Shown: positions 1,756 to 17,220, numbered from the stretch's first letter. The stretch is DNA of 17,497 nt from a virus (UHGV-0117027), one strand, 5' to 3'. Notes: generated from the sequence alone by a model not told the origin. Made by a program: numbers and translations.

Positions 1756-1765
1756 GGTGACAGCT

Positions 1766-2443
1766 ATGATCCATGTTCGAACGGGACAATTTGCGGCGGT
1801 GGTAGACGGCAGGCGGTACGTGTTTAATCCCTGCTTCGCTGCAATGGCTAAAATCGGCAGTGACAGCGAACTGGTCGAATACTTCGCAACCATACACGGT
1901 GGCAAATATCCATCACGATTGCCAGCGGATCCAGACCTTCGCAATCGCATTATGGCGCGGTGTTATGGTGAAATGGTGCAAACGTCCATGCACATCCTGA
2001 AATGTTGCTCAGACGACGAAATAGGCACGCTATTAGGCGAATGTAGGTTTACTCCTTCCGGCAAGTTACGACTAAGACCAGGACTGATGCCTACCAGTGA
2101 CGTTATCACGCTGGCGCAGCATTGCATGTACCACGGTTTAATCGGTGACGGGCCGGAAGAAAATACAAGCGAGATCCAGGAAGGTGAGTACAAGCCGACA
2201 TTTGATGTACTTGATTTCGTTTATTCTGCCGTTGCCCACCTGGGGTTATCTGAATCAGAAGCATGGGGCATGACAATGACCGGATATAGGGCCGCAGTAC
2301 GCGCCAAAATGCCGCAAGAAGCAAGAAACAAACAAAAACGACCAAATGTATTGCTTGACAAAAAGGCTTATGACGATGGAATGAGGGAGGCTATGGAGGT
2401 ACTGGAAAGAATGAAAAATCGCGAGCAAGAAAAAGCCCGGTAG
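1766..2443 (+). CDS. tail assembly chaperone (putative; single ORF, no frameshift partner visible)
   Basis: 225 aa from ATG 1766 (SD AAGGTGA at 1754-1760; the track start at 1757 is GTG). Lies between major tail and tape measure. Highly charged C-terminus. No overlapping +1/-1 ORF of useful length. Confidence 0.5.
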   Translation: MIHVRTGQFAAVVDGRRYVFNPCFAAMAKIGSDSELVEYFATIHGGKYPSRLPADPDLRNRIMARCYGEMVQTSMHILKCCSDDEIGTLLGECRFTPSGKLRLRPGLMPTSDVITLAQHCMYHGLIGDGPEENTSEIQEGEYKPTFDVLDFVYSAVAHLGLSESEAWGMTMTGYRAAVRAKMPQEARNKQKRPNVLLDKKAYDDGMREAMEVLERMKNREQEKAR

Positions 2444-2458
2444 ATCCGGGCTTTTTTT
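2434..2458. terminator. hairpin terminator, candidate bidirectional, between convergent genes
   Basis: GCCCGG (2435-2440), loop TAGAT, CCGGGC (2446-2451), flanked by A-run (2431-2434) and T-run (2452-2458); the chaperone stop TAG lies in the loop and the minus-strand gene ends at 2457. Confidence 0.7.
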
Positions 2459-2954
2459 AATAACCTATATAATATTCGTGGTGTTTATCTATTACTTTTT
2501 TATACATGTTAGCGCCTTCTTTGACGCACATGTTTTTGAAGTCAATTCTTACCCTATCTAATGCCATCCCGTCGGCAGCGGCATAAGCGTTATTGTCGTG
2601 ATCTTTTATCGCCCGTTCAGCAGCCATGATGGCAAGTCCAGCGACAAAGTTTTTAAATTCATTATCATTTTGTTTGTTTTCAGCAGCAGCCATCACGAAA
2701 GCGAAACTTTCACCGTGCGCTTTTATCATTTCAGCGTCACCTTTTTTGGTCCTGCTATCTTTATTTAAGATGAAATACTCCCAGTTAACGCCGTGCCTAC
2801 CAATTGAAAAAAAGTTTACATTTGCCATTGTATATGCTTTTTCGTAGGCTGGATAAATAGCGTCGCACATCTTGCTGACTTCATTACTTGCATTTGCATT
2901 GACCGCGAATATTGCCATGACCGCAGCTACCGCGACTTTTACTAGCCGTTTCAT
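2457..2954 (-). CDS. secreted protein of unknown function (N-terminal signal peptide)
   Basis: 165-aa ORF opposite to the tail genes; N-terminus MKRLVKVAVAAVMAIFAVNANA-SNE is a classic Sec signal peptide with an AxA site; SD GAGG 7 nt upstream of the ATG. Confidence 0.7.
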   Translation of the reverse strand: MKRLVKVAVAAVMAIFAVNANASNEVSKMCDAIYPAYEKAYTMANVNFFSIGRHGVNWEYFILNKDSRTKKGDAEMIKAHGESFAFVMAAAENKQNDNEFKNFVAGLAIMAAERAIKDHDNNAYAAADGMALDRVRIDFKNMCVKEGANMYKKVIDKHHEYYIGY

Positions 2955-2966
2955 AACCCGCCTCGA

Positions 2967-3056
2967 TTAATTTTTGTTTTTAAGTGCTTTTAACATTTCT
3001 TCTATGAAGTCCGCATAGCGTTCATGTTCGTTGGGACGATAGTTTACGTTTTTCAT
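2967..3056 (-). CDS. small ORF (29 aa), first gene of the leftward cassette
   Basis: ATG at 3056 preceded by AGAGGA SD with 7-nt spacer; encodes MKNVNYRPNEHERYADFIEEMLKALKNKN; stop 12 nt before the secreted-protein start. Too short for composition-based support. Confidence 0.3.
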   Translation of the reverse strand: MKNVNYRPNEHERYADFIEEMLKALKNKN

Positions 3057-3133
3057 TTTCTTATCCTCTTTTGCTTCCTCCGGTTTATCCGGTCCTTTCA
3101 AACCCCTTTGCTCTATCCCTTTCCTTTAGTCTC

Positions 3134-3162
3134 TTTATACAAAATGGAGTCGTTATAGTAAA
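3134..3162 (-). promoter_or_regulatory. candidate sigma70-type promoter for the leftward cassette
   Basis: Minus strand reads TTTACT (+ coords 3157-3162), 17-bp spacer, TATAAA (+ coords 3134-3139). By-eye match only. Confidence 0.3.
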
Positions 3163-3163
3163 G

Positions 3164-3202
3164 ACATTTTGTATAAAATAGATACACAGATCACAAAAGT
3201 GG
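3164..3202 (+). promoter_or_regulatory. conserved bipartite element upstream of the tape-measure gene
   Basis: ACATTTTGTATA (3164-3175), 8 bp, ACACAGATCACAAAA (3184-3198) then GTGGAG (SD). The same 12-mer and 15-mer recur exactly at 15342-15353 and 15367-15381. Confidence 0.5.
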
Positions 3203-3212
3203 AGTAACAATC

Positions 3213-5426
3213 ATGACAACAAATGTGGGCACGATTGAGTATACCGTTGACGCAAAAACCGAGCGGTTACTAGTAGCTCAACGCAAGGCGGAGGACTCGT
3301 TTGATAAAATCGAGCAAGGCGCTAAACGCACCGATAAATCAGTGCAGTCACTTAATACCACGATAAGTAATTTATCCAAAGCCGTGAACATTGGAATGAT
3401 GGTCATGGCTGCAAAAAAATTCCTGGAGATCGCAGATAACGTAAATCTGCTACGCGCCAGGGTAACACGACTATCAAGCGGCATTGCTGACGCAAAATCG
3501 AATTTTGACGGGATTGTTCAGATATCGAATCGCACAGGGATGAGTGTTCAAAGCACCGGGAAGCTGTGGGAAAGCCTAAAAGCCAGCCTACAGGATACCA
3601 GCGCGACCAGTCAGCAGGTATTGCAGCTTACCGACTCGCTTCAGAAAATAGGCCGTATCGGAGGTAGCTCATCAGATGAAATGTCAAACGCACTTCGCCA
3701 GTTAGGGCAGTCCCTGACGGGTGGCATTGTTCGCGCGGAAGAATACAACTCTGTGCTTGAAAACATGCCCGAAGTATGGCGACGCGTCGCCAAACAAATG
3801 GGGATCTCGATGGGTGAACTTCGCGCAAGAATGCTTGATGGTAAGCTCACCGCCGAGGATGTTACCAATTCAATTCTTGCTGGCGCAGAAGACATAGAGA
3901 AGGACTTCGCAAAACTGCCAACAACAACAGATCAGGCATTTAACGAGCTAAAAAACAACTTCGATCTGTTAATTGACACGCTAAACCAAACGCTTGGAGT
4001 GTCTGATTTGGTAGTTACTGGTATACAGGCTGTTTCTAGTGAAGTCCAGATGTTATCTGGTTGGTTTAAGTCCCTGGCGAGCGATAGCACGTCATTAACT
4101 GATAAATTGTGGCTATTGGCTGGGGCGTTTGAGGGTATAGTGCCTGGGCTTAGTTTGTTCCGCGCTCAAGCGAAACAGGTTGGATGGTTTGATGGCGGAG
4201 AACAGCCATTTGTTTCCACTCTCCCCACGGGGCAAGCTGGTGTAAGTCGCATAACGTTTAAGCCTCAACCTGGTGGTAAGGGTAAGAAAGGCAAAGGTAA
4301 AAAAACCGGCAAATCAGAAGCCGAGCGCCTTGCGGAACAGGGTGTGCGCATTTCAGATGCATATAACGAAGATTCGGCAGCAATGCGCAAAGCGCTTGAA
4401 TCACAAAAAGCCATAGATGCAGCCTTTAAAGCCGGGAAAATAACCATGCTTGAATACAAAGGCGCAATGAAGGGAATTGGTGATGAATTGCGCGAAACTC
4501 TGGCGGAAATTAACGACCCGATCAATAGGCTGCAAGAAAAATGGGACAAAATGATTCCATCACTGGATCAGAAGCGCGGTGAACTAGACCCAATACAGCA
4601 GGCGCAAAATGAATGGACCGTTCGTAAGCAAATGCTGGAAGATCTTGGCGCTACTGAGCAATATATGAGGGAACAAGAAAGAGCGCACGCACAGGAAATG
4701 CTCACCCTTGAGTGGGAGCGATATAAAGCACAGTCAATGAGCTACAAACTGTTGGGCGATACCGTTGATGCAATGGGCGGATCTGCAACAAATGCGCTTG
4801 TGGGCCTGGTTAACGGCACTCAAAGCTGGCAGCAGGCGCTGGCTAACATTGGCAATACAATCCTTTCCTCCGTTATCGGTACGCTTGTTCAAATGGGGGC
4901 TGAATGGGTCAAGCAGCAATTGATAGGCGAGGCCGCCAGCGCAGCCGCAACAGCTAAAGCATTGGCAGAGGCTACCGCTTTGGGATCTGCGTGGGCTACT
5001 CCTGCATACCTGGCAAACGTAGCCACGATGGGCGGCGCGGCGACCGTGGGGGGTACGAGTCTTGCCACTGGTGTGGCTGGAGCAAAAGCGCTTGGCCTGG
5101 CTGGCGCTCGTTATAACGGCGGTGCGGTGGCTGCGGGCAGCCTCTATAAGGTCGGCGAACACGGTAAACCGGAGATCTTTCAGGCGAGCAATGGGAGTCA
5201 GTACATGATCCCGGGTGACAACGGCAGGGTAATACCAAATCGCGACATTGGTGGTGCTGGTGGTGGTAGCGTTAGCATAAACGCGCCGATTAGTGTTTAC
5301 CCACAAAATGGATGGAGCGATGAGGATGCCAAAAAGCTGCAACAGGACATGGAAAGGATCTGCATGGGCCTGATGCACCGCGAATCATCCAGACCAGGCG
5401 GAATGCTGCAACCTCGCAGGAAATAA
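3213..5426 (+). CDS. tail tape measure protein
   Basis: 737-aa ORF after the chaperone; helical N-terminal two-thirds, a Lys/Gly-rich stretch (KPQPGGKGKKGKGKKTGK) and a Gly/Ala-rich C-terminal region; SD GGAG 9 nt upstream of the ATG. Confidence 0.9.
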   Translation: MTTNVGTIEYTVDAKTERLLVAQRKAEDSFDKIEQGAKRTDKSVQSLNTTISNLSKAVNIGMMVMAAKKFLEIADNVNLLRARVTRLSSGIADAKSNFDGIVQISNRTGMSVQSTGKLWESLKASLQDTSATSQQVLQLTDSLQKIGRIGGSSSDEMSNALRQLGQSLTGGIVRAEEYNSVLENMPEVWRRVAKQMGISMGELRARMLDGKLTAEDVTNSILAGAEDIEKDFAKLPTTTDQAFNELKNNFDLLIDTLNQTLGVSDLVVTGIQAVSSEVQMLSGWFKSLASDSTSLTDKLWLLAGAFEGIVPGLSLFRAQAKQVGWFDGGEQPFVSTLPTGQAGVSRITFKPQPGGKGKKGKGKKTGKSEAERLAEQGVRISDAYNEDSAAMRKALESQKAIDAAFKAGKITMLEYKGAMKGIGDELRETLAEINDPINRLQEKWDKMIPSLDQKRGELDPIQQAQNEWTVRKQMLEDLGATEQYMREQERAHAQEMLTLEWERYKAQSMSYKLLGDTVDAMGGSATNALVGLVNGTQSWQQALANIGNTILSSVIGTLVQMGAEWVKQQLIGEAASAAATAKALAEATALGSAWATPAYLANVATMGGAATVGGTSLATGVAGAKALGLAGARYNGGAVAAGSLYKVGEHGKPEIFQASNGSQYMIPGDNGRVIPNRDIGGAGGGSVSINAPISVYPQNGWSDEDAKKLQQDMERICMGLMHRESSRPGGMLQPRRK

Positions 5427-5432
5427 ACAAAA

Positions 5433-5460
5433 CCCCGGCACAATGCCGGGGCTATTTTAT
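5433..5460. terminator. hairpin terminator, candidate bidirectional, between convergent genes
   Basis: CCCCGGC (5433-5439), loop ACAAT, GCCGGGG (5445-5451), then TATTTTAT; on the other strand the hairpin is followed by TTTTGTTTATTT. The minus-strand 59-aa gene ends at 5457. Confidence 0.7.
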
Positions 5461-5636
5461 TCAATTTCATCATTTTTAAATTCGCCGTTTGCATAAAGCT
5501 GCAATGCTCTTATCAGTTCGTCAGCTTGCTTTTTGTCTATTACAATCATCTCGCAGTCGCTAACGATCCATAATCTTCCGTCATCTTCAATACTAAGATC
5601 AATCCTTCTGCATTCTTCAGTATCATGAATAATCAT
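5457..5636 (-). CDS. small protein (59 aa), unknown function
   Basis: ATG at 5636 with GAAGG SD 7 nt upstream; hand-translated as MIIHDTEECRRIDLSIEDDGRLWIVSDCEMIVIDKKQADELIRALQLYANGEFKNDEIE; last gene of a four-gene leftward operon. Confidence 0.5.
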   Translation of the reverse strand: MIIHDTEECRRIDLSIEDDGRLWIVSDCEMIVIDKKQADELIRALQLYANGEFKNDEIE

Positions 5637-5674
5637 TATAAACCTTCATCATGTTATTGATTTCGTGAATAAAT

Positions 5675-5845
5675 TTACTCAAATCTTGTATATCCTCTCT
5701 CAATTTTCCCTCCGTGTACACTTCTGGCAAATACCGCGTCAGTACACCTAAAAAATGGGCATGTATATGTATCCCCTTTACTATCCATATATTTTAGCAC
5801 CCATGCCATGCGTTTTACGTTGCTTTTATTTGCCGGATTTTTCAT
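5675..5845 (-). CDS. small protein (56 aa), unknown function
   Basis: Internal ATG at 5845 with GGAGG SD (8-nt spacer), preferred over the TTG start of the 64-aa track ORF; MKNPANKSNVKRMAWVLKYMDSKGDTYTCPFFRC... Confidence 0.45.
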   Translation of the reverse strand: MKNPANKSNVKRMAWVLKYMDSKGDTYTCPFFRCTDAVFARSVHGGKIERGYTRFE

Positions 5846-5876
5846 TTTGTTTTCCTCCGCAACATTCAAATCCGTG

Positions 5877-6131
5877 TCACTTGTGAGCGCCTTTCACCCC
5901 ACAGTGCCTGTTATATTCCAGGTGGTCAATAATTAACCACATCTTTAAATCTTCGCTGAATAACCGCCAATCGGGGTTGATGTCAAATTTATAACCGTAG
6001 CCATCGCGTAATTTTTTGGGGTTGGCCTCTTTTTTAAGAAAAGCATCAAGCAATTGCTTTCCTTTCTTGATGATCCGGTCCTGTGCGTTTTTCTGTGCTT
6101 TCAGGTTTTTACCAATCGCCACCAATTTCAT
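5877..6131 (-). CDS. small basic protein (84 aa); RelE/YafQ-like toxin fold is a weak by-eye candidate
   Basis: ATG at 6131 (track ORF starts at an upstream GTG). Lys-rich N-terminal half, then NPDWRLF strand, MWLIID strand and C-terminal EYNRH; recalled YafQ/RelE-type toxins share the PDW...strand...basic/His C-terminus pattern. Not verified by alignment. Confidence 0.5.
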   Translation of the reverse strand: MKLVAIGKNLKAQKNAQDRIIKKGKQLLDAFLKKEANPKKLRDGYGYKFDINPDWRLFSEDLKMWLIIDHLEYNRHCGVKGAHK

Positions 6132-6149
6132 AACACACCCCACAATCCA

Positions 6150-6305
6150 TTAGTTGACCACTTTCAGGAAGAAATCACGGTACTCGTTTTCCTTCGCATT
6201 CATCATGAATTGACCGTATTTGAATGCGTCATCAAAGCCTTTGACTATCGCCACTTCCACCTGTTCGAATGCGTTGTTCAGCATTACCACTACATAACGC
6301 TTCAT
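6150..6305 (-). CDS. small protein (51 aa), first gene of cassette
   Basis: ATG at 6305 preceded by AAAGGAGG SD (5-nt spacer); hand-translated as MKRYVVVMLNNAFEQVEVAIVKGFDDAFKYGQFMMNAKENEYRDFFLKVVN; stop 18 nt before the 84-aa gene start. Confidence 0.5.
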   Translation of the reverse strand: MKRYVVVMLNNAFEQVEVAIVKGFDDAFKYGQFMMNAKENEYRDFFLKVVN

Positions 6306-6375: not shown

Positions 6376-6390
6376 GCCATTTTGTAAACT
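6376..6390. promoter_or_regulatory. conserved intergenic element GCCATTTTGTAAACT
   Basis: 14 of 15 identical to GCCATTTTGTTAACT at 7972-7986; both sit at the head of a leftward cassette and contain the ACAAAATGG core on the minus strand. Confidence 0.45.
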
Positions 6391-7183: not shown

Positions 7184-7432
7184 CTATAAGTTATCACGCA
7201 GATAATTAACGCCCTTATCAGTGACGAATGAATGGTTAACCTGGTTTTCATCCGTCATGATGATAAATAACTTTTCCTGTAGGTATTTAGCTTTCGGGTA
7301 CAGCGTTAAACAGACCTGGTACAGTATCCCGCGCTCAATCAGCAAATCAATAAATTCGTGTTCATGATAACCAACGAGGCGGGCGGCCTGTTTCAGCGTG
7401 TACACATAATCGCCGTGATTGCGCCGCCCCAT
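7184..7432 (-). CDS. small protein (82 aa) with helix-turn-helix-like segment, putative DNA-binding
   Basis: Start at 7432 overlaps an AGGGGG SD placed on the upstream gene stop; segment TLKQAARLVGYHEHEFIDLLIERGIL resembles an HTH. Family not identified. Confidence 0.55.
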   Translation of the reverse strand: MGRRNHGDYVYTLKQAARLVGYHEHEFIDLLIERGILYQVCLTLYPKAKYLQEKLFIIMTDENQVNHSFVTDKGVNYLRDNL

Positions 7433-7441
7433 GTATCCCCC

Positions 7442-7789
7442 TTATTTATCGAATGCTGCAAGATTATCCATGCAGAAGTCTTTCGCAGCTTTTTCGTATT
7501 CGCGTTTTGCTTCTGGATCGTCAGCCGGGAAACCTTTTGCGTGTATTTCACCAGGGCAAGACTGATCCATAGAGTCTGCAAAATTAACATTGAAGTTAAC
7601 ATTAATATCTTTCGGGTTCATATCTTCCACCTCATCAACTATCTGTACCGGATTAGCAGCATATTTCACTGGATGGCCTAAACTACATTCAAGAATCCTG
7701 CCTTCTTCCAGGGCTACTTCTTCGCTATCAAATAATCCGAAACACTCCTTGCTACCACTTAACCACACATCAAGACTGTATTTTTTCAT
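7442..7789 (-). CDS. acidic protein (115 aa), unknown function
   Basis: Internal ATG at 7789 (MKKYSLDVWLSGSKE...) with GAGG SD, preferred over the longer 149-aa track ORF whose 5' part overlaps the upstream gene in another frame. Confidence 0.55.
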   Translation of the reverse strand: MKKYSLDVWLSGSKECFGLFDSEEVALEEGRILECSLGHPVKYAANPVQIVDEVEDMNPKDINVNFNVNFADSMDQSCPGEIHAKGFPADDPEAKREYEKAAKDFCMDNLAAFDK

Positions 7790-7958
7790 TTTTGTTAGCC
7801 TCATATTTGACAGGTTCGATCTGGTATCCCAAAAGGCGGTCATCCTCAGCAAGTAAAAGCGCGTCAACCAATGCTTCCCCCTCGTCGTCATACAGGGCGA
7901 TAACCTTTTCCCTACCGTCTGTCATGAATACCGTCAACTTCCATGGCTTTTCAGTCAT
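7770..7958 (-). CDS. small acidic protein (62 aa; alternative in-frame start at 7976 gives 68 aa)
   Basis: ATG 7958 with GGAGG SD (6-nt spacer); the in-frame ATG at 7976 also has an AAGGGGAAG SD and lies inside the conserved ACAAAATGG element. Overlaps the next gene by 20 nt. Confidence 0.5.
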   Translation of the reverse strand: MTEKPWKLTVFMTDGREKVIALYDDEGEALVDALLLAEDDRLLGYQIEPVKYEANKNEKIQS

Positions 7959-14428: not shown

Positions 14429-15028
14429 ATGGCTACTTTCGGCGCTTATTTACGTTTAAGTAATGGCAATATTTTCGTAACTCCAGATTCGACACCTATG
14501 TGCCTTTATTCACGGGTTGCTCTCAATTCAAGCCAACAGCAAACAATAGCCGTCCCCAATGGGAAGCCTGTAATGGTATTCATAAAAAACACAGACGATA
14601 CCGCTACTGGTGTAGCCTATCGCAATTCATCGTCTACCATAGTGATTCCACCAGGAAACGGTTACGCGTATATATTCAGTATCTTCCCGCAATCGCGTCC
14701 GAAGTGGGGTATGGCTATATGGAACGCTTCCGGTGAACTGGTATTGACAAACGAATCAAGAATATTGACAGACATTGTTACGGTGGGGACAGCCGGATCA
14801 AGTGGTGGAATTTATATCGACCAGACATTATCAGGATCTTATGCGGTAGTGCCTCAGATATTAGGGGCCGTTGTAGGTATGGGTTCTGCGACAATATATA
14901 CAGAGGCATACTACAACGGCAGCACTACACGAATTCGCGGGAAGATGGTTGGTAGCTTGCAACAGATTTACGGTTACATTAATCACGGGAACGCTATCAC
15001 CGCCATTAAAACCGACGCCTATGATTAA
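14429..15028 (+). CDS. beta-rich protein (199 aa), paralogue-like partner of the upstream gene, unknown function
   Basis: Translationally coupled to the upstream gene; N-terminus MATFGAYLRLSNGN...; Ser/Thr/Gly/Asn-rich like fibre or adhesin domains. Confidence 0.6.
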   Translation: MATFGAYLRLSNGNIFVTPDSTPMCLYSRVALNSSQQQTIAVPNGKPVMVFIKNTDDTATGVAYRNSSSTIVIPPGNGYAYIFSIFPQSRPKWGMAIWNASGELVLTNESRILTDIVTVGTAGSSGGIYIDQTLSGSYAVVPQILGAVVGMGSATIYTEAYYNGSTTRIRGKMVGSLQQIYGYINHGNAITAIKTDAYD

Positions 15029-15264
15029 TTCAGTTCCGGGCAATCCGTTTTCTTGAAGTGGTCAACGCTTACCCATTGGAAGTTAAACGGATACCCGGCC
15101 TTAACCATTTTATGACCGCCAACATCCGCGACACCGAAGACTGCAACCGCATATTCATTACCGCCAGCCTGATAAATTGCCGTGCATTCACGTTTCGGCA
15201 TATCAGCACAACCAACCATACCAGCGACCATTGCAGCTATAGCGATATTTTTAAAGCCTTTCAT
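15025..15264 (-). CDS. small lipoprotein (79-aa precursor), candidate Cor/Llp-type superinfection exclusion protein
   Basis: ATG at 15264 with GGAGGA SD (7-nt spacer), preferred over the far-upstream track start at 15408; MKGFKNIAIAAMVAGMVG-C: signal peptide plus lipobox-like Cys, mature part about 60 aa with two more Cys. Divergent from the tail-fibre gene. Confidence 0.6.
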   Translation of the reverse strand: MKGFKNIAIAAMVAGMVGCADMPKRECTAIYQAGGNEYAVAVFGVADVGGHKMVKAGYPFNFQWVSVDHFKKTDCPELN

Positions 15265-15341
15265 TGTCTTATCCTCCATTGTTCCGTCGGTTGTAGTATC
15301 CATAAACATCGTTTTCTCAACATTGATATAAATCAATAAAT

Positions 15342-15384
15342 ACATTTTGTATAGGTCAGGAATGTAACACAGATCACAAAATGG
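15342..15384 (+). promoter_or_regulatory. conserved bipartite element upstream of the tail-fibre gene
   Basis: ACATTTTGTATA (15342-15353), 13 bp, ACACAGATCACAAAA (15367-15381) then TGG; exact copies of the two blocks at 3164-3175 and 3184-3198. Confidence 0.5.
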
Positions 15385-15423
15385 TAAAATTACCAGGTTA
15401 ATTAACATAATGGAGTCATTGCG

Positions 15424-17220
15424 ATGATTTACACAACAGGCACGATAGCCGTTAGCGGAAAAACAGTTACCGGAACGGGGACTGAATTCAACGCCGCATT
15501 ATCTCTGATCAGAGTTGGGTGCACTCTTATTGCCATTAGCGATCCGGTGCAAATTTTTTCAATCACAGAGGTAAAAAGCGCAACAAGTTTGTCGGTAACT
15601 CCGGCGGCAAGTCCGGCTATTCCGGCTGGGACTAAATTTAGCATCCTGCTTTCAGATTCGATCTCTGTAGATGGTCTTGCTCAGGATGTTGCCGAAACAC
15701 TACGTTACTATCAGGGCAAGGAATCAGAAATAGCTGACGCCGTCGAATTTTTTAGCGACAACAAAGATGTGATTTCAGCCTCAAAATTAGCATCAGAATC
15801 AGCTACCACTGCAACCAACGCAGCAACAACAGCAACAAGCGCCGCCGATTCAGCTAAGGCATACAGAGACGAGGCCCACGAATACGCCAATCAGACGGCT
15901 CAGCCTTACGCGTATGTTTTGCAGCCGCTGCCGGATGTATGGATACCGTTTAACGATTCTCTCGATATGATTACTGGTTTTTCTCCTTCCTATAAAAAAA
16001 TTGTTATTGGTGACGATGAAATAACGATGCCTGGCGACAAGATTGTTAAGTTTAAACGTGCATCGAAAGCAACCTATATTAACAAATCTGGTGTGCTGAC
16101 AGAGGCTGCCATTGACGAGCCACGATTTGAACGTGATGGCCTGCTTATTGAGGGGCAAAGAACGAACTTCTTCCAGAACAGTGCAGACCCTTCGAAGTGG
16201 AATAAGTCAACTTCACTGGACGTTACAGAAACAGGCACAGATAGTTTCGGGTTTAATTATGGCCGGTTTGTCGTACAGGATTCGATTGTTGGTACAAGTA
16301 AAGCGCATACCATTATCGGACTGTATTCGAGTACCGGAGGGGTTGATACTTCAGGGGACGAAAAGTATGTAACTATATCCTGTCGGGTAAAAAGTGAAGT
16401 TGATAATATCGCCGTTCGTATTTTATTTGAACATTATGATGGGGAGGTAAGGACATCAATAGGAACAGCAAACCTTAACCTTACCACCCGCATAATTAGC
16501 AAGACAGGTCAGACAAGCCGTGTTACAGCAAGGTCTGTTAAGGATGATGCAACTGGCTGGATATTTTTTGAGGCTACATTAAAAGCAGATACAACAGAAA
16601 ATACGGTTGGTGGTTTTGTCCAGTATTCTCCAGATACAGGGCAGATGGTTGCATCAGGGGATTATCTCGATGTAACCACTCCACAGATTGAGGCTGGTAC
16701 AGGCGCATCATCTTTTATTGTTACGGGGACGGCGGCGGCAACGCGTGCAAGTGACATAGCCACGGCCCCGATAAAGAACAACCTTTATAATGCACCATTC
16801 ACTATTCTTTGCGAGGTACATAAAAATTGGGAAAAAACGCCGAGTTCAGCGCCGCGTGTTTTTGACACAGGCGGCCATCAGACTGGCGCGGCTATAATTC
16901 TTGCTTTTGGGTCGTCGACAGAATACGACGGATTTCCTTATTGCGATATTGGAGGAGCAAACAGGCGCGTTAACGAAAACGCATCAATGCAAAAAATGAT
17001 TATCGGCATGAGGGTTAAAAGCACCTATGATGCATGTTGTGTCAGTAACGGACGCATATCAAGCGAAACAAAAACAACATGGAGATATATATCTAACGCA
17101 GCAATATTCCGTTTCGGCGGTCAAACAACATCAGGGGAGCGACATCTTTTTGGACACATTAGAAATTTCAGGGTATGGCACAAAGCATTAACCGATGCGC
17201 AATTGAGCGAGATTGTTTAA
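15424..17220 (+). CDS. side tail fibre protein with Ala/Thr-rich N-terminal region and LamG/ConA-like C-terminal domain (putative)
   Basis: 598 aa; GGAG SD 8 nt upstream; low-complexity SESATTATNAATTATSAADSAKAYRDEA typical of tail-fibre N-terminal regions; C-terminal ...RHLFGHIRNFRVWHKALTDAQLSEIV resembles the end of LamG-like jelly-roll domains. Confidence 0.8.
   Translation: MIYTTGTIAVSGKTVTGTGTEFNAALSLIRVGCTLIAISDPVQIFSITEVKSATSLSVTPAASPAIPAGTKFSILLSDSISVDGLAQDVAETLRYYQGKESEIADAVEFFSDNKDVISASKLASESATTATNAATTATSAADSAKAYRDEAHEYANQTAQPYAYVLQPLPDVWIPFNDSLDMITGFSPSYKKIVIGDDEITMPGDKIVKFKRASKATYINKSGVLTEAAIDEPRFERDGLLIEGQRTNFFQNSADPSKWNKSTSLDVTETGTDSFGFNYGRFVVQDSIVGTSKAHTIIGLYSSTGGVDTSGDEKYVTISCRVKSEVDNIAVRILFEHYDGEVRTSIGTANLNLTTRIISKTGQTSRVTARSVKDDATGWIFFEATLKADTTENTVGGFVQYSPDTGQMVASGDYLDVTTPQIEAGTGASSFIVTGTAAATRASDIATAPIKNNLYNAPFTILCEVHKNWEKTPSSAPRVFDTGGHQTGAAIILAFGSSTEYDGFPYCDIGGANRRVNENASMQKMIIGMRVKSTYDACCVSNGRISSETKTTWRYISNAAIFRFGGQTTSGERHLFGHIRNFRVWHKALTDAQLSEIV

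Follow-up and report, generated by a model that had tools for sequence, protein, structure and literature searches.

The window, i.e., the whole 17,497-nucleotide stretch of viral DNA that was analysed (UHGV-0117027), contains an accessory cassette (2430-3195) that is antisense to the tail operon and occupies the slot between two of its genes. The left boundary is a gene for a DUF6246 protein (1757-2443, plus strand; PF19759, 190.7 bits; phrog_791), which lies in the position of the tail assembly chaperone and, judging from position alone, would have this role; the right boundary is a tape measure gene of the TMP_3 type (3213-5426, plus strand; PF20155, 176.5 bits). On the minus strand, the slot contains a gene for a 165-aa protein (2457-2954, read from 2954 to 2457), recognized as an ORF with homologs and a signal peptide, and a 29-aa gene, MKNVNYRPNEHERYADFIEEMLKALKNKN (2967-3056, read from 3056 to 2967), recognized from a codon-position test, its pN/pS ratio and an in-frame indel. 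Both ORFs were found exactly where the original prediction had placed them, between the chaperone-position and the tape measure genes. The GC content of the slot is 0.39, versus 0.48-0.50 for the flanking tail genes.

Positions 2300-3300 are 100% identical to a prophage on the chromosome of E. coli M15 (NZ_CP185789.1), in which the RefSeq annotation reports the 165-aa ORF as a “hypothetical protein” (WP_421519520.1) and leaves the 29-aa ORF without annotation. The closest sequenced phages are mEp021, mEp010, mEp013, mEp044, mEp515, mEp554 and MagusPhagus. PMC11893012 places mEp021 and its relatives in the “mEpimmI” group, whose members are temperate siphophages, Nus-dependent and non-lambdoid; a term search of that paper for gp62-gp64 and for morons returned no mention.

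The exported 165-aa protein

The signal peptide of the 165-aa protein was judged by classical rules and Kyte-Doolittle hydropathy, not by SignalP. Codons 1-22 (2889-2954, minus strand) comprise an n-region, MKRLVK, with a charge of +3, an h-region, VAVAAVMAIFAV, of 12 residues with a mean hydropathy of 2.9, and a c-region, NANA|S, with Ala at -3 and -1, which satisfies the A-x-A rule before Ser23. These are the features expected of proteins secreted by Sec and processed by SPase I, namely a charged n-region, an h-region of 10-15 residues and small residues at -3/-1, and they support the Sec signal peptide claimed originally, which by this rule-based check appears canonical and cleavable. A lipobox ([LVI][ASTVI][GAS]C) was not found in the protein, its first Cys being residue 30, past the A-x-A site.

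The mature domain of 143 aminoacids (2460-2888, minus strand) reaches a maximal 19-residue hydropathy of 0.56, thus lacking an additional hydrophobic segment. Structure prediction, which had been proposed as a check, yielded with AlphaFold2 a helical bundle made of four long helices and a short one (pLDDT 79.6, pTM 0.80), without a fold neighbor; indeed, the comparison with BFVD gave no match with E <= 0.001. Cys30 and Cys143 are invariant in the family alignment, and a Cys30-Cys143 disulfide probably stabilizes the protein.

The 165-aa gene is a real gene and not a chance ORF. Its homologs, sharing 45-98% identity, display pN values of 0.31-0.37 against a saturated pS of 0.85-0.95 in the deep comparisons, while the closest pair in the family has a dN/dS of about 0.42 and its aminoacid changes concentrate in residues 73-93. 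When 5.8 billion proteins were searched with a word index, six clusters were retrieved, all from E. coli and with 49-98% identity; an exhaustive search with a profile, covering 1.84 billion cluster representatives, gave two matches, one of which, P0007, is an additional distant member. The protein is accordingly a member of an orphan family, which comprises about eight clusters in databases of billions of proteins, all of them from phages of E. coli. All four copies for which the locus was read (the window, L010, L021 and L023) occupy the same chaperone-tape measure slot; P0007, the homolog of strain KKa019 and the IMG/VR copy L023 are all found in this slot. No match rose above noise in Pfam (E <= 0.1), PHROGs, NCBIfam or the sequence profiles of the PDB, and no family of the PADLOC defence profiles matched either of the two ORFs or any of the alternative cargo types described below.

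The small gene and the expression signals

The 29-aa gene is preceded by a Shine-Dalgarno sequence, GAGGA (3064-3068, read 3068-3064), with a spacing of 7 nt to the ATG, and 12 nt separate its stop codon from the start of the 165-aa gene. The latter has its own Shine-Dalgarno sequence, GAGG (2961-2964, read 2964-2961), 6 nt before the ATG, and the junction TAA-N-GCGRGGTGGGTT-ATG ahead of it is common to loci with other cargo. The 29-aa peptide is hydrophilic and has neither a signal peptide nor a transmembrane segment. Among 13 distinct sequences, the variable columns at codon positions 1/2/3 are 7/5/21, pN/pS is 0.077 in its own frame versus 1.0-2.8 in the other sense frames, and the one length variant is an in-frame 3-nt indel of a single codon; the start codon and its Shine-Dalgarno context, AGAGGATAAGAAAATG, are invariant. 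These data indicate that the 29-aa ORF is a genuine protein-coding small gene under purifying selection, and its absence from RefSeq makes it another small protein missed by annotation.

The small ORF is present in 43 of the 66 loci that could be delimited, in each case directly following the promoter as first gene, and the cargo gene next to it belongs to one of at least five unrelated types; it is missing upstream of the 165-aa homolog in strain KKa019. In the loci devoid of it, the promoter and the Shine-Dalgarno junction (TAAGCGRGGTGGGTT-ATG) are kept, and the block with the small ORF and the purine-rich leader is absent. In a phage collection searched by tblastn, the small ORF is confined to mEp021-like phages. 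Since it precedes unrelated cargo and is absent before the KKa019 homolog, the small ORF belongs to the 5′ part of the cassette rather than being a partner dedicated to the 165-aa protein; thus, of the earlier proposal of a co-translated leader or small partner, the real, selected gene with its Shine-Dalgarno sequence is retained and the specific partnership is not. Translational coupling between the two genes is plausible. A role of the peptide itself, rather than a mere aid to the translation of the next gene, is favoured because the aminoacid conservation is strong.

Plus-strand readings of the slot were also considered and rejected. Neither a G-T-type frameshift extension nor the ORFs called by PHANOTATE (mEp515_85 and others) agree with the cargo DNA, which is not conserved between phages; a 44-aa ORF on the plus strand (3024-3158) lies outside the mirrored frame, and the substitutions are distributed as expected for the 29-aa frame on the minus strand. 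Plus-strand PHANOTATE ORFs that cover the small-gene region in other loci are probably spurious (L001:4610-4729, L002:4627-4731, L005:2568-2669 and L006:2485-2670). Among the deposited phage records, only that of mEp515 annotates the minus-strand gene of 27-29 aminoacids. In E. coli UMNK88 (L011:2599-2700), the purine-rich 5′ leader has gained about 90 nt ahead of the small ORF; this insertion gives rise to an additional 32-aa ORF rich in Arg and Lys, which was seen in three loci.

Directly past the stop codon of the 165-aa gene lies a bidirectional intrinsic terminator (2430-2456), common to this gene and to the convergent DUF6246 gene. The hairpin, GCCCGG-loop-CCGGGC extended by A/U pairs, has a folding energy of -17.0 kcal/mol on the minus strand (z -5.0) and of -19.7 kcal/mol on the plus strand (z -5.9), and none of 200 shuffled sequences folded as well. 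At the other end, transcription would start near 3127 on the minus strand, leaving a putative 5′ UTR (3057-3127) that is purine-rich, contains several GGA/AGGA motifs besides the Shine-Dalgarno sequence of the small gene, and is unstructured (fold z -1.0). The Rfam covariance models gave no match in 2955-3212, the sole sub-threshold matches being terminator-like and located at 2398-2512; this result, together with the unstructured 5′ UTR, ruled out a known regulatory RNA or attenuator in the leader.

Upstream of the putative start site, a 44-bp promoter block (3134-3177) is delimited by a perfect 13-nt inverted repeat (3134-3146 and 3165-3177). Its minus strand reads TACAAAATG (3173 to 3165), 2 nt, a TTTACT -35 hexamer (3162 to 3157), 17 nt and a TATAAA -10 hexamer (3139 to 3134), and its plus strand has the mirror-image arrangement, facing the tape measure gene. 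The block is kept in all related loci, with or without the small ORF. A consensus promoter scanner made no call at TTTACT-17-TATAAA, because the -10 hexamer ends in A; by consensus and conservation, a putative sigma-70-like promoter would drive the cassette. Further upstream, a conserved element, TGTGATCTGTGTATCT (3180-3195, minus strand), is centered at about -61; in its left half it agrees with the CRP half-site TGTGA, and its counterpart in the cor upstream region is TGTGATCTGTGTTACA. Its designation as a CRP site is speculative.

The TACAAAATG motif is present in 12 copies in the 59-kb M15 prophage, versus 0.73 expected (about 16-fold), and in 10 copies in the first 50 kb of mEp021, versus 0.57 expected and a maximum of four in 300 shuffles. 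The copies are mostly intergenic, although two of the 12 in M15 are within or at the end of a coding sequence, and several are placed exactly 2 nt upstream of a -35-like hexamer. In the window, they are located at 3138-3146 (plus strand) and at 3165-3173, 6378-6386 and 15343-15351 (minus strand); others are found in L081/L003 and L082. The sites include the promoters of three antisense tail-region cassettes and a strong promoter immediately past the repressor gene. Lying at -46 to -38 and rich in A, the motif resembles a proximal UP-element subsite. As an alternative to an UP-element-like sequence, it could be the binding site of a phage regulator. The cassette may be expressed in the lysogen; however, the occurrence of the motif also beside early promoters near the repressor gene means that the cassette could instead be controlled by the repressor. 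The inverted repeat was also considered as a repressor operator, but PMC11893012 gives no operator sequences.

The cassette is not the only unit of this kind, as the mEpimmI tail operon is interrupted by at least four antisense accessory units. Directly past the tape measure gene, a second cassette (5457-6305, minus strand; GC 0.39) comprises a 51-aa gene (phrog_29810), an 88-aa protein with a ParE-like toxin domain (PF24732), a 64-aa ORF and a 59-aa gene (phrog_13627), with TACAAAATG-gc-TTCACA-17-TATATA as promoter (6386-6347, minus strand); it may be a toxin-antitoxin or defence moron. A third cassette (7184-7891, minus strand) is located between tail genes and, according to the M15 annotation, encodes a KilAC-domain antirepressor and two hypothetical proteins. 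The RefSeq cor gene (127 aa; 15025-15408, minus strand, start at 15408) appears over-extended: an alternative lipoprotein start is found at 15264 (MKGFKNIAIAAMVAGMVGC...), preceded by the Shine-Dalgarno sequence GGAGGATAAGAC, and a copy of TACAAAATG (15351 to 15343) lies inside the annotated N-terminus. The TGTGATCTGTGTTACA sequence upstream of cor is a near-consensus CRP-like site. In M15, an IS903B element is inserted directly downstream of cor (L003:33221-34189), where the window has instead an uninterrupted ORF of 598 aminoacids (15424-17220); the window thus probably does not derive from M15 itself, despite the identity over 2300-3300.

Cargo exchange in the slot

The interval between the DUF6246 and tape measure genes was catalogued in 20 annotated E. 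coli/phage loci and 46 IMG/VR loci. Across these approximately 66 loci, the slot is occupied by at least seven cargo types, which are unrelated to one another and combine in mosaic fashion. The family of the 165-aa protein (type A, 160-167 aa) is rare, with four loci; the other types are a secreted protein of 137-139 aa, represented by mEp021 gp63 (type B), a secreted protein of 116-119 aa (type C), a VasI-domain lipoprotein of 203-219 aa named TagO by PGAP (type D; PF11319, 57.6 bits), a BamE-like lipoprotein of 124 aa (type E), a pair of membrane proteins of 35 and 100 aa (type F) and a membrane protein of 59 aa (type G). A few cargo proteins, e.g., one of 106 aa, have no export signal, and on the basis of these predictions the cargo appears mostly, though not exclusively, directed to the envelope. 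The VasI/TagO lipoproteins are a common cargo, being found in 20 of the 66 loci (e.g., L004:2361-3020, L018:1864-2475 and L019:1813-2472); this family, otherwise known solely as a T6SS accessory and of unknown function (PMC13584744), is thus given a phage context by the slot.

Types A, B, C and D start with MKRL(A/V/I)K, and the signal peptides of types A-C end with (A/V)FNANA. Remote homology among the latter three was rejected, since hhalign aligned type A with B and C over just 28 and 33 columns, within residues 1-33, which correspond to the signal peptide region alone plus a few residues. The type B gene of mEp010 (L005:2433-2498) and the type C gene of E. coli 127 (L013:2435-2500) have nearly identical signal-peptide DNA and unrelated mature domains, which suggests that recombination joined the two parts at the signal-peptidase site or close to it. 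A specific interaction between cargo and tape measure protein is unsupported, because the cargo type does not follow the tape-measure type: type A is found with three types of tape measure protein and type D with four.

A broader reading of these observations is that the slot is a dedicated “export cassette”, made of a common promoter, the gene of 27-29 aminoacids and a signal peptide, onto which recombination would graft interchangeable periplasmic, lipoprotein or membrane effectors. The helical 165-aa protein would then represent a new class of soluble periplasmic entry blockers, functionally similar but unrelated to the Spackle protein of phage T4, and the 29-aa peptide a new small factor that regulates or assists either the expression of the cassette or export. 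Taken as a whole, this reading seems doubtful to us. In any case, at least seven swappable, mostly envelope-directed cargo genes are available in the slot behind a single promoter, and this natural set could easily be tested side by side.

Possible functions and comparison with known systems

The opposite strand, the low GC content, the promoter-like site, the terminator and the replacement by unrelated genes in sister phages with the same tail genes identify accessory cargo, as the original prediction had held, and not tail machinery. Three of these properties (terminator, base composition, replacement among syntenic relatives) are those by which morons are recognized in silico, and 2430-3195 is very probably a moron cassette, encoding an exported periplasmic protein together with a real small gene. 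That the product also acts as a protective factor in the envelope, most likely by superinfection exclusion, is an explanation for and against which we consider the case evenly balanced. A sigma-70-type promoter, TACAAAATG-N2-TTTACT-N17-TATAAA, would drive a short operon formed by the 29-aa gene, as a generic component of the 5′ part, and then by the 165-aa gene, and transcription would stop at the bidirectional terminator. After export through Sec and cleavage past Ala22, the 165-aa product would fold in the periplasm as a soluble helical bundle of about 16 kDa, where it would be a protective factor in the envelope of the lysogen.

The most likely role of such a factor would be to block a post-adsorption step in the entry of competing phages, protection from another envelope-directed attack being less likely. 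Location, export and precedent are the grounds for proposing an exclusion or conversion function, and superinfection exclusion by the 165-aa protein, being argued by analogy, is a tentative assignment that falls somewhat short of an even chance. In mEpimmI phages, the structural gene cluster encodes exclusion lipoproteins, the Lpp proteins, which were shown experimentally to exclude phages (PMC11893012) and are here taken to be of the Cor type. A counterpoint to the argument by precedent is that the 165-aa protein is predicted to be soluble in the periplasm, whereas HK97 gp15 is inserted in the membrane and Cor is a lipoprotein.

The same properties could serve in a defence not directed against phages. 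The 165-aa protein would in this case confer periplasmic immunity to bacterial envelope weapons, such as colicins, T6SS or CDI effectors and lysozyme-like enzymes, and the slot would be an array of interchangeable orphan immunity-type genes. A periplasmic, small, helical, probably disulfide-bonded and fast-evolving protein (dN/dS of 0.42 in the closest pair, residues 73-93) would suit this role, and the VasI/TagO lipoproteins of the alternative cargo belong to a family otherwise known from T6SS clusters alone. However, the function of VasI/TagO is itself unknown (PMC13584744), no similarity of the 165-aa protein to known immunity families and no cognate toxin gene nearby were found, and every copy of the family whose locus was read is phage-borne; immunity of this kind is, in our opinion, unlikely. 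Lysogenic conversion without defence, through a fitness or virulence factor acting on host physiology or on the animal host, as lambda Bor and Lom, would agree with a prophage moron that occurs in gut E. coli isolates and has an exported product, and such roles are common among morons (PMC3594210). Nevertheless, Bor and Lom are outer-membrane proteins, while the 165-aa protein would be soluble in the periplasm and without an anchor, the hypervariability and mosaic exchange of the slot fit an arms race better than host adaptation, and the family is very rare, which makes this possibility distinctly unlikely.

A function in the lytic cycle of the phage itself would imply late expression, rather than expression from the prophage, of a periplasmic protein that, for instance, modulates lysis or spanins or keeps the progeny from adsorbing to lysing cells. 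The TACAAAATG motif is shared with early-region promoters near the repressor gene, so that expression could depend on induction, and Llp of phage T5 is a precedent for progeny protection; yet, late expression is disfavoured by the antisense orientation of the 165-aa gene to the late operon, whose transcription is strong. Furthermore, the gene is dispensable, sister phages carrying unrelated genes in its place, and the lysis genes are located elsewhere. We thus regard a lytic role as very unlikely. A tail-associated structural or assembly protein would have refuted the secreted cargo proposed originally, but the position inside the tail gene cluster is the sole point in its favour. A cleavable Sec signal is incompatible with virion assembly in the cytoplasm, neither Pfam nor PHROGs gave a match of the 165-aa protein to a tail or virion structural family, the gene runs opposite to the tail genes and has a terminator of its own, and it is absent or replaced in phages with nearly identical tail genes; moreover, mEp021 gp63, in the corresponding place, is annotated as a hypothetical protein, while several of its neighbors are annotated as virion structural proteins. 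This explanation is effectively refuted.

Current concepts are not changed by these results, as the moron slot and its general logic have been known since HK97. Their value for specialist follow-up lies in the swappable cargo behind a common promoter, small gene and signal peptide and in the enriched promoter motif, and in nothing else. If the 165-aa protein indeed blocks entry from the periplasm, a soluble, non-anchored exclusion factor would join a short E. coli list and would provide a handle on the step of siphophage infection between adsorption and the entry of DNA in the cytoplasm.

HK97 gene 15, the first moron described, is located between the tail assembly chaperone and tape measure genes and encodes a YebO-like inner-membrane superinfection exclusion protein expressed by the prophage (Juhala et al. 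2000 and Cumby et al. 2012, via PMC3594210). The cassette resembles it in occupying the same slot of a siphophage tail operon and in being an add-on with its own terminator and deviating GC content, whose product is predicted to be directed to the cell envelope; its promoter, which gene 15 also has, is putative. Gene 15 is on the same strand as the tail genes, while the 165-aa cassette is antisense. The products also differ, gp15 being a small inner-membrane protein of the YebO family and the 165-aa protein a soluble, helical and, by prediction, signal-cleaved one, unrelated in sequence; indeed, no homology to YebO was detected in Pfam (E <= 0.1), nor a membrane segment in the mature part. The phage lineages are different as well, the cassette belonging to the mEpimmI group, which is termed non-lambdoid in PMC11893012.

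As regards function, the nearest precedent for the 165-aa protein is T4 Spackle, with which it would share Sec export, a helical structure and, probably, a disulfide bond, although no sequence or structural similarity between the two was detected. Spackle (Sp) is a periplasmic superinfection exclusion protein, which inhibits the gp5 tail lysozyme. It is Sec-exported, soluble, small and mainly alpha-helical, with a disulfide, and it demonstrates that a soluble periplasmic protein can block an incoming phage. However, Spackle is about half the size of the 165-aa protein and comes from a lytic phage, and a lysozyme target is not evident for the 165-aa protein.

Like the predicted product of the 165-aa gene, lipoproteins of the Cor/Llp type are envelope proteins of prophages, with genes placed antisense among those for the tail. 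In the window, the region upstream of cor and its Shine-Dalgarno context are paralogous to those of the cassette, with TTTTGTGATCTGTGT...TATACAAAATG and GGAGGATAAGA-AATGAAA in common. Unlike the 165-aa protein, which has an SPase I site and neither a lipobox nor homology to Cor, Cor is a lipobox lipoprotein that inactivates an outer-membrane receptor. Finally, the defence/accessory hotspots of temperate phages, e.g., those of P2 and P4, are fixed slots with conserved core flanks, in which unrelated cargo is exchanged among relatives. The chaperone-tape measure slot is similarly fixed, flanked by core genes and open to cargo exchange; unlike those hotspots, its cargo is mostly directed to the envelope, and the secreted types share as 5′ part a conserved putative promoter, an optional gene of 27-29 aminoacids and the region coding for the signal peptide.
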